This document shows positions 42,933 through 44,978 of a DNA stretch of 64,000 nucleotides, one piece after another. The position numbers and the translations under genes were made by a program. The stretch lies in assembly GCF_003334335.1 (NCBI RefSeq), contig NZ_QOWQ01000020.1; one strand, 5' to 3'. The number at the start of each line of letters is the position of its first letter. Position 1 is the stretch's first letter. The stretch is from Escherichia coli. Its GTDB lineage: Bacteria; Pseudomonadota; Gammaproteobacteria; Enterobacterales; Enterobacteriaceae. A model generated the notes under the pieces. The model saw only the letters and a program-made list of their open reading frames with translations. It was not told where the DNA came from and did not search any database.

Positions 42933-44192
42933 TTATGAGCGTTTCATCATTTCGAAGAAATCGTCATTGGTCTTGGTCATTGCCAGTTTATTAATGAGGA
43001 ATTCCATTGCATCGATTTCGCCCATCGGGTGAATGATTTTGCGCAGGATCCACATTTTCTGCAGTTCTTCCTGAGTCGTGAGCAGCTCTTCTTTACGGGT
43101 ACCAGAACGGTTGTAGTCGATAGCCGGGAAGACGCGTTTTTCAGCGATCTTACGAGAGAGGTGCAGTTCCATGTTGCCTGTACCTTTAAACTCTTCGTAG
43201 ATAACTTCGTCCATTTTAGAACCGGTATCGATAAGCGCCGTCGCGATAATGGTCAGGCTGCCGCCCTCTTCCACGTTACGCGCCGCACCAAAGAAGCGTT
43301 TCGGACGATGCAGGGCGTTGGCATCCACACCACCGGTCAACACTTTACCTGACGCCGGAACAACGGTGTTGTAAGCGCGCGCCAGACGAGTGATGGAGTC
43401 GAGCAGAATGATAACGTCTTTCTTGTGCTCAACCAGGCGTTTGGCCTTCTCGATCACCATTTCCGCAACCTGAACGTGGCGAGATGCGGGTTCGTCAAAG
43501 GTAGAAGCAACAACTTCACCTTTTACCAGACGCTGCATCTCGGTTACTTCTTCCGGACGTTCGTCGATCAGCAGAACCATCAGCACACAATCCGGGTGGT
43601 TGTAAGCAATGCTCTGAGCAATGTTCTGCAGCAGCATGGTTTTACCGGCTTTCGGCGGTGCCACAATCAGACCACGCTGACCACGACCGATAGGTGATGC
43701 CAGATCCAGTACGCGAGCAGTTAAATCTTCAGTAGAACCGTTACCACGTTCCATACGCAGACGAGAGTTTGCGTGCAGCGGGGTTAAGTTCTCAAAGAGG
43801 ATTTTGTTGCGGGCGTTTTCAGGTTTGTCGAAGTTAACTTCGTTAACTTTCAGCAGCGCAAAATAGCGTTCACCTTCTTTCGGCGGGCGAATCTTACCAG
43901 AGATGGTATCACCAGTGCGGAGGTTGAAACGGCGGATTTGGCTAGGGGAAACGTAGATGTCATCAGGACCGGCGAGGTAGGAGCTGTCTGCGGAACGGAG
44001 GAAACCAAATCCATCCTGCAATATCTCCAGTACGCCATCACCAAAGATATCTTCGCCACTCTTTGCGTGCTGCTTCAGGATGGCAAAAATAATGTCCTGC
44101 TTACGCATACGAGCCAGGTTTTCCAGCCCCATATTTTCGCCGAGAGTGATCAGCTCAGAAACCGGCGTATTCTTTAATTCGGTAAGATTCAT
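42933..44192 (-). CDS. rho: transcription termination factor Rho
   Basis: Track ORF 443 aa; known 419-aa protein starts [25 protein letters not shown] (ATG 44190-44192). Confidence 0.98.
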
Positions 44193-44276
44193 AGTGGTGT
44201 GAGTTCTTAAACTTGGGGTAAATCTCGAACTTAATGTTGTGAATGGTATGGCAGGATCATCCATGCCTGTTTACGG

Positions 44277-44378
44277 TCATCGACTCATGTCTTTTCGCTG
44301 CCTGGTCACAGGAGAGTACGCAGAACTGAAACGACAAGACGGATTGAGTGACGAGCCAGAAATCTGTTCACTTCGCAT
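44277..44378 (-). CDS. rhoL: rho operon leader peptide
   Basis: 33-codon minus-strand ORF MRSEQISGSSLNPSCRFSSAYSPVTRQRKDMSR upstream of rho. Confidence 0.8.
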   Translation of the reverse strand: MRSEQISGSSLNPSCRFSSAYSPVTRQRKDMSR

Positions 44379-44518
44379 TTAAGATAAAACGGGAAGCGTT
44401 GGAAATTACAAGATTCAAACTTAATAAGGTATGTTTAATACGAAGTCAACACTAAGTTAGCATGACTCACGCCGGGCGTCCAGTTTTTAGCGACGGGGCA
44501 CCCGAACATGAAATTCCC

Positions 44519-44848
44519 TTACGCCAGGTTAGCGTCGAGGAACTCTTTCAACTGACCTTTAGACAGTGCACCCACTTTGGTTGCCGCCACTTCACCGTTT
44601 TTGAACAGCAGCAGAGTCGGGATACCACGGATGCCATATTTCGGCGCAGTGCCAGGGTTTTGATCGATGTTCAGTTTTGCAACGGTCAGTTTGCCCTGAT
44701 ATTCGTCAGCGATTTCATCCAGAATCGGGGCGATCATTTTGCACGGACCGCACCACTCTGCCCAGAAATCGACGAGGATCGCCCCGTCCGCTTTGAGTAC
44801 ATCCGTGTCAAAACTGTCGTCAGTCAGGTGAATAATTTTATCGCTCAT
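44519..44848 (-). CDS. trxA: thioredoxin 1
   Basis: Track ORF 144 aa; known 109-aa protein starts [18 protein letters not shown] with WCGPC active site (ATG 44846-44848). Confidence 0.98.
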
Positions 44849-44978
44849 ATATAACTCCACAGGAATAAGCCTGGCGTGTTGGTTTCGTTGTTGGTGTAAC
44901 ATTAACCAACTAAAGGTTGACTTTATTTCACCGGATACGCTTTCGTAAAGCAATAGTAAGCTGATATTCTACCACACT

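Follow-up and report, generated by a model that had tools for sequence, protein, structure and literature searches.

The rhoL open reading frame within the conserved leader of the Escherichia coli rho gene

The 33-codon rhoL open reading frame (ORF) of Escherichia coli lies inside the ~222-nt rhoL–rho leader, and in our assessment the attenuation of rho quite likely rests on conserved RNA elements of this leader, with the encoded peptide probably not being the functional unit. Since the nucleotides are conserved without third-position bias and with some compensatory pair changes, the constraint looks to act at the level of RNA. The feature itself is the annotated E. coli rhoL, which is ordinary and already known; mildly new is the comparative evidence, obtained from a small sample.

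Identity and surroundings of the rhoL ORF

In the window, the stretch of 64,000 nucleotides of E. coli DNA that was analysed, the ORF listing gives an ORF of 33 codons at 44277–44378 on the minus strand (44378->44277), with an ATG start and a TGA stop, whose product is MRSEQISGSSLNPSCRFSSAYSPVTRQRKDMSR. The first-pass annotation had reported a 33-codon ORF with the same peptide at exactly this place, leaving its strand unstated. A reading of the interval on the plus strand was discarded, its translation having an internal stop. The TGA codon occupies 44279–44277 and the rho ATG is at 44192, with 84 nt counted between them, in agreement with the earlier estimate of ~85 nt upstream of rho; the two ORFs share one reading frame, the distance from ATG to ATG being 186 nt. 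rhoL sits between trxA (44848->44519) and rho (44192->42933; 419 aa), immediately upstream of rho and on the same strand as both, the position expected of RhoL; wecA (42693->41590) is also on the minus strand, and rhlB is divergent on the plus strand. RefSeq, which also lists the rhoL and rho coding sequences, gives the gene order trxA–rhoL–rho–wecA, with rhoL in the same position as the ORF in the window.

RefSeq has the identical peptide, WP_001295255.1 ("rho operon leader peptide RhoL"), at the syntenic position, and an exact-sequence look-up led to LPRH_ECOLI under the same name. The named members of its protein cluster come only from Escherichia or Shigella (E. coli, Shigella, E. ruysiae, and E. 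fergusonii). The NCBIfam equivalog NF007433/PRK09979 (RhoL) aligned residues 1–33 with profile positions 1–33 at 95.2 bits (E = 1.5e-27), against a curated cut-off of 85 bits for the whole-protein HMM score. Since the peptide thus matches RhoL, both by this score and by exact identity to WP_001295255.1, the proposal that the ORF is RhoL stands and the feature is rhoL. It shows no difference from rhoL of E. coli K-12 (b3782, EG12428; UniProt LPRH_ECOLI; WP_001295255.1), having the same 33 aa, DNA, strand, and position relative to trxA and rho. A 411-nt stretch around the ORF showed 100% identity to E. coli chromosomes, and each of 5426 complete E. coli genomes (5426 of 5426) contains it, with the ORF annotated as rhoL; the 102-nt ORF alone has at least 99% identity in 5340 of them and 95–99% in the other 86. 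In the E. coli genomes inspected, the ORF is unbroken and the whole leader nearly invariant. It is identifiable because of its exact match to annotated RhoL, its length being no more than chance gives: a complete ATG-initiated ORF of at least 33 codons arose in 4449 of 20000 shuffles (22%) of the 255-nt leader, and the window holds 313 ATG ORFs of at least 33 codons in six frames.

A sigma-70 promoter for rhoL–rho is found on the minus strand, with a −35 hexamer TTGACT (44449–44444), a 17-nt spacer, and a −10 hexamer TATTAA (44426–44421). This reading agrees with a genomic SELEX study, which gives TTGACT-17-TATTAA as the constitutive rhoL–rho promoter in the trxA>rhoL spacer (PMC3946193). Both hexamers are kept in the relatives included in the leader alignment. 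A consensus promoter scan missed this promoter because its −10 hexamer ends in A. Transcription would start at about 44414–44416, giving a leader of ~222 nt; the rho start codon is thus preceded, as in an attenuator, by a dedicated promoter and a long transcribed leader whose start site is a predicted one.

Two RNA 3′ ends mapped by Term-seq (Adams et al. 2021, PMC7815308 supplement) fall in this region. One, at K-12 position 3966322, was found in two conditions and corresponds by arithmetic to 44287 (minus strand), inside rhoL, 91 nt from the rhoL start and 95 nt before the rho ATG. The other, at K-12 position 3966142, is the trxA RNA 3′ end, 275 nt upstream of the rho ATG (~44467). It lies at the edge of a trxA 3′ hairpin (44467–44512, minus strand; −22.4 kcal/mol for the fold of 44455–44522), which has no U-tract and is therefore not a canonical intrinsic terminator. 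No intrinsic terminator, that is, a G+C-rich hairpin with a U-tract, was found in 44100–44980 on either strand. At the foot of the trxA hairpin, just upstream of the −35 hexamer of the rho promoter, is the box CTGGACGCCCGG (44483–44472, minus strand), which is almost invariant in the aligned Enterobacteriaceae leaders while its flanks vary, and directly after which the mapped trxA 3′ end follows. Upstream of trxA, the TrxA 5′ UTR thermometer (Rfam RF02773) was matched at 44819–44918 (minus strand) with 78.8 bits against a gathering score of 58. Four Enterobacteriaceae loci (L084, L088, L089, and L092) carry an extra insertion of ~90 nt (~1831–1920) with a long inverted repeat right after the trxA stop codon, their trxA–rho spacer being 418 nt.

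Structure and conservation of the leader RNA

The folded leader contains two hairpins that together take up most of the rhoL ORF. In hairpin 1 (44369–44398, minus strand), the rhoL AUG (44378–44376) and codons 2–4 are paired; its folding energy is −10.0 kcal/mol (z = −4.3), and none of 200 shuffled sequences folded as well. Two of its pairs are doubly changed across species (UA to CG and GC to AU), and the probability that the rhoL AUG is unpaired in the ensemble of the leader is 0.01. Hairpin 2 (44274–44358, minus strand) is a long imperfect stem-loop formed by rhoL codons 7–34 (−26 kcal/mol, z = −1.7), and in Enterobacteriaceae no other part of the rhoL region is as conserved; the RNA 3′ end at 44287 is two nt past its inner stem. 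In the consensus fold of eight species, five pairs in helices 3 and 5 of hairpin 2 are changed on both sides, and the C:G pair at fold positions 10/85 is replaced by U:A in E. albertii. The most divergent E. coli strain has four differences, all of them in the arms of hairpin 2; they alter the peptide (S9L, S32R, and R33stop) and leave the stem still pairable.

The consensus fold of the eight species retains hairpins 1 and 2, with 94% of its cells paired. Both partners have changed in seven pairs; the shuffled control has a mean of 3.5 such pairs and reaches seven in 2 of 500 shuffles. This control covers only eight related sequences and is not to be read as a probability. Covariation gives modest support for hairpins 1 and 2, which is suggestive, not conclusive. 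The folding energy of the whole leader is unremarkable (z = −1.3), and by energy alone only hairpin 1 stands out. In a search with Rfam covariance models, no family matched the leader (44193–44420) even at E ≤ 1. We regard a weak match of the fluoride riboswitch within rho (14.9 bits, gathering score 34, E = 0.33) as a chance hit.

No Shine-Dalgarno sequence precedes the rhoL ATG, the best duplex with the 3′ end of 16S rRNA having a ΔG of +1.2 kcal/mol, which is weaker than for any of the 48 long ORFs of the window and for 93% of random 20-mers. Neither of the two signals of translation initiation considered here, a Shine-Dalgarno sequence and an accessible start codon, was therefore found for rhoL. 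The match of rho itself is also very weak (ΔG −1.4); since rho is nevertheless well expressed, the missing Shine-Dalgarno sequence of rhoL is not decisive.

To compare relatives, species-representative genomes were scanned with Rho, which gave at least 80 loci, about 14 of Enterobacterales being among the matches listed. These included no named Salmonella, Shigella, or Klebsiella pneumoniae, and Enterobacteriaceae leaders were added by an exact-match look-up of TrxA; the comparison is accordingly a small one, of ~15 Enterobacteriaceae leaders. The trxA–rho synteny holds across Gammaproteobacteria among the loci listed. The rhoL ATG was found only in E. coli, E. albertii, and one E. coli-like assembly, and is GCG, ACG, or missing in nine other Enterobacteriaceae leaders: GCG in Citrobacter werkmanii, Citrobacter sp. 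FP75, "Enterobacter" BIGb0383, and two other assemblies; ACG in three distinct leaders of the 418-nt-spacer type, representing four assemblies; and a gap in Superficieibacter. In leaders without this ATG, gene callers had used ATC, ATA, or ATT as "starts". The stop codon is no more stable. TGA is replaced by TGG in several genomes, with a stop two codons later; a stop occurs one codon earlier in E. albertii, the ACG-type leaders, "Enterobacter" BIGb0383, and one E. coli strain; and Superficieibacter has no stop, the frame reading through into rho. Indels of 1 nt and 5 nt break the frame in "Enterobacter" Ag1 and "Klebsiella" BIGb0407. Within Escherichia, too, the C-terminus of RhoL varies, the peptide having 32 aa in E. 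albertii, E. fergusonii, and one E. coli strain. Start, frame, and stop of rhoL are thus not conserved among relatives that keep the leader. Conceptual translations from Citrobacter FP75, Superficieibacter, and "Enterobacter" BIGb0383 scored 67–75 bits with NF007433, and that from E. albertii 84.4 bits, all below the cut-off.

Despite the unstable start and stop, the core nucleotides of rhoL are almost invariant in Enterobacteriaceae. In a set of 12 sequences, the variable columns at codon positions 1, 2, and 3 numbered 1, 7, and 6 (of 26 each) for rhoL codons 9–34, compared with 12, 1, and 60 (of 109 each) for trxA and 12, 4, and 200 (of 360 each) for the first 1080 nt of rho. Third positions are therefore variable at 23% in the rhoL core against 55–56% in trxA and rho, and first and second positions at 15% against 2–6%. 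The distribution over codon positions in the rhoL core differs from that in trxA and rho (Fisher p = 4e-5) and is not of the coding type; it is the signature of constrained non-coding sequence. Past the promoter, conservation runs on through ~220 nt of transcribed sequence. Outside Enterobacteriaceae, in Yersinia, Photorhabdus, and Acerihabitans, the rhoL part is unalignable, and the 80 nt from the rhoL stop to the rho ATG are highly conserved.

These comparisons lead us to a reading whose chances we put at about even. rhoL would not be a conserved gene; it would be an ORF of Escherichia/Shigella type lying on a leader RNA that is structurally conserved across Enterobacteriaceae, and the 80 nt downstream, with AAACAGGC, CTGCCATACCATTCAC (perhaps a mini-uORF of the form M-T/I-L-P-Y-H-S-x-x), and a C-rich tract, would be conserved in all sampled Enterobacterales. 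In that case, autoregulation of rho would depend on these elements of the RNA, and rhoL would be better labelled as belonging to a structured leader.

Rho-dependent attenuation and the rhoL reading frame

Knowledge of the autogenous attenuation of rho goes back to the 1980s (Barik 1985; Matsumoto 1986; reviewed in PMC6582626): as these studies are cited in later papers (PMC6582626, PMC5499598, PMC12121999, and a preprint of 2026), rho is autoregulated by Rho-dependent premature termination in its 5′ leader. The first-pass annotation had described rhoL as the known leader of this system. The region is indeed the rho 5′ leader with documented autogenous attenuation (PMC6582626, PMC12121999, PMC5499598), whereas "leader peptide" is a label of the annotation; rhoL is listed among the "leader peptides" of EcoCyc (PMC7815308). 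In the accessible literature, the primary papers of 1985 and 1986 aside, we found no evidence that the RhoL peptide or its translation drives or is required for attenuation. In chromatin immunoprecipitation (ChIP) of RNA polymerase (RNAP), occupancy of the rho ORF is below that of the 5′ UTR/rhoL region, and the gap shrinks in the rho R66S mutant (PMC5499598, PMC12121999), where the ratio of RNAP occupancy in rho to that in rhoL is 12-fold higher (PMC12121999), with a similar result in PMC5499598. Tetracycline caused no significant change of RNAP occupancy in rho of wild-type cells (PMC12121999). In Salmonella, the sRNA SraL is described as pairing with the rho leader and counteracting termination (Silva 2019).

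Directly upstream of the rho ATG lies a C-rich, G-poor tract (44186/44193–44260, minus strand; C 27%, G 10–12%, C/G 2.3–2.7), which is conserved across the sampled Enterobacterales and begins only ~15 nt after the rhoL stop codon. By its composition, this tract is a candidate rut site, that is, a region for Rho loading. A further C-rich, G-poor stretch (43901–44005, minus strand; C 38–42%, G 13–18%) lies inside rho at about codons 63–97, and may be regarded as a plausible candidate for an intragenic rut or attenuator region, to which the published loss of RNAP in early rho may be linked.

The course of events that we favor can be put together from these elements. Transcription would start at the TTGACT-17-TATTAA promoter downstream of trxA; in the emerging RNA, hairpin 1 would sequester the rhoL AUG, and hairpin 2 would form from rhoL codons 7–34. 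Rho most likely loads on the unstructured C-rich, G-poor tract that separates the rhoL stop from the rho AUG, and possibly also on the second patch inside rho. As published work shows, transcription is terminated prematurely by Rho in the leader and in the early rho coding region, and excess Rho therefore lowers rho mRNA. The RNA 3′ end at ~44287 may represent a terminated transcript that has been trimmed as far as the inner stem of hairpin 2, and the ATG-initiated rhoL ORF, of Escherichia/Shigella type only, would be a by-product of the conserved structured leader. The published attenuation model concerns the same leader, and the long 5′ UTR, the C-rich, G-poor tract, the leader RNA 3′ end, and the Rho-dependent loss of RNAP all accord with it; in what could be consulted of that model, the peptide is not needed, and several relatives lack the rhoL ATG.

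It is rather unlikely, in our estimate, that rhoL is a truly translated regulatory uORF in which ribosome traffic sets the loading of Rho on the leader. In such a mechanism, which we hold to be similarly improbable, ribosomes would melt hairpin 2 and, on reaching the stop codon, cover or expose the C-rich tract, coupling rho to the translational status of the cell. The annotation as a leader peptide, the short distance from the rhoL stop to the C-rich tract, and the intact ORF in the inspected E. coli genomes are compatible with this mechanism, as is the lack of a good Shine-Dalgarno sequence in rho itself. A Ribo-RET preprint mentions rhoL, without studying it, among small ORFs with an initiation signal at least 3-fold up at low Mg2+ (PMC11429745); this signal under Mg2+ starvation also speaks for the mechanism, and because of it some translation may occur. 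Against it, the AUG has no Shine-Dalgarno sequence and is held in a stable, conserved hairpin, leaders other than those of Escherichia type lack the ATG though the leader sequence and the synteny with rho persist, and the substitutions follow no coding-type pattern; moreover, the absence of a significant tetracycline effect on RNAP occupancy of rho in the wild type (PMC12121999) argues against strong translation sensing. Translation of rhoL, if there is any, is likely to be weak and at most modulatory. The comparison with established uORFs that gate Rho-dependent termination (tnaC–tnaA, mgtL/mgtA, the corA leader, and toiL–topAI in PMC12121999) is instructive. Like rhoL, these are short ORFs in a long leader before a Rho-terminated region, with the stop near a C-rich tract. 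They have, however, demonstrated translation and sensing codons or stalling motifs, and are conserved as ORFs, whereas in rhoL the AUG is sequestered and lacks a Shine-Dalgarno sequence, neither start nor stop is conserved, and the substitutions do not follow a coding pattern. The classical ribosome-mediated attenuators (trpL, hisL, leuL, pheL, and ilvL) are grouped with rhoL as EcoCyc "leader peptides" (PMC7815308), but rhoL, unlike those of the trpL type, has no terminator/antiterminator hairpin with a U-tract, and its peptide has no run of regulatory codons.

Much less probable still is an action of the RhoL peptide in trans as a small protein, for example on RpoS activity or on Rho. [quoted passage not shown] The peptide, furthermore, is not conserved, its C-terminus varying even within Escherichia, and its substitution pattern is not protein-like. 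We give the least credence of all to a pure chance frame unrelated to regulation, in which only promoter or other DNA-level signals would be conserved. ORFs of this length do arise commonly by chance, as the shuffled leaders showed, but the conservation continues past the promoter for ~220 nt of transcribed sequence, the compensatory pair changes support an RNA structure, a mapped RNA 3′ end lies inside rhoL, and the literature places Rho-dependent attenuation in this very leader.

Under the preferred reading, in which conserved leader RNA elements carry the attenuation, the label "leader peptide" probably overstates the role of the ORF. An ORF that is not conserved as a coding unit on an RNA that is conserved bears on the actual wiring of Rho homeostasis, and on whether the phenotypes of "rhoL" mutants reflect the peptide or an altered function of the rho leader. 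It also calls for caution, in that annotations as "leader peptide" are not evidence of translation-coupled control.

Short reading frames around the rho start codon

Between the rhoL stop and the rho ATG, the invariant AAACAGGC box and a small hairpin 3 (44267–44250) were located by alignment and folding at 44250–44272 (minus strand). This segment includes an ATG at 44264, which is in frame with rho and 72 nt upstream of its start; use of this ATG would add 24 residues to Rho, and the ORF listing starts rho there. It is conserved in most sampled Enterobacteriaceae, the frame being broken by indels of 1–2 nt in some. The same candidate N-terminal extension of 24 residues has been noted in annotations of uropathogenic E. 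coli in a review of 2025 (PMC12258240).

A candidate mini-uORF of nine codons is found at 44231–44260 on the minus strand (ATG ATC CTG CCA TAC CAT TCA CAA CAT TAA, encoding MILPYHSQH). The invariant AAACAGGC box comes before it, AGG stands 5 nt ahead of its ATG, and it overlaps the invariant C-rich motif CTGCCATACCATTCAC; because of this overlap, it may simply be a rut element. The mini-uORF is intact in 8 of 13 non-Escherichia loci of Enterobacterales, seven times as a nine-codon ATG ORF and once via an upstream ATG. Citrobacter werkmanii, Superficieibacter, both Enterobacter-named genomes, Yersinia, and Photorhabdus share its frame and stop, as does Acerihabitans via the upstream ATG. Of the genomes that retain the leader, Citrobacter FP75 has it in disrupted form and "Klebsiella" BIGb0407 lacks it; three reduced symbiont genomes are without the CTGCCATACCATTCAC nucleotide motif.

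A short ATG ORF (MITSFLYESD or similar) was also noticed in 11 Pseudomonas loci, where it spans positions −20 to +14 relative to the rho ATG and runs out of frame over the rho start. It probably reflects conserved nucleotides around the start codon only.
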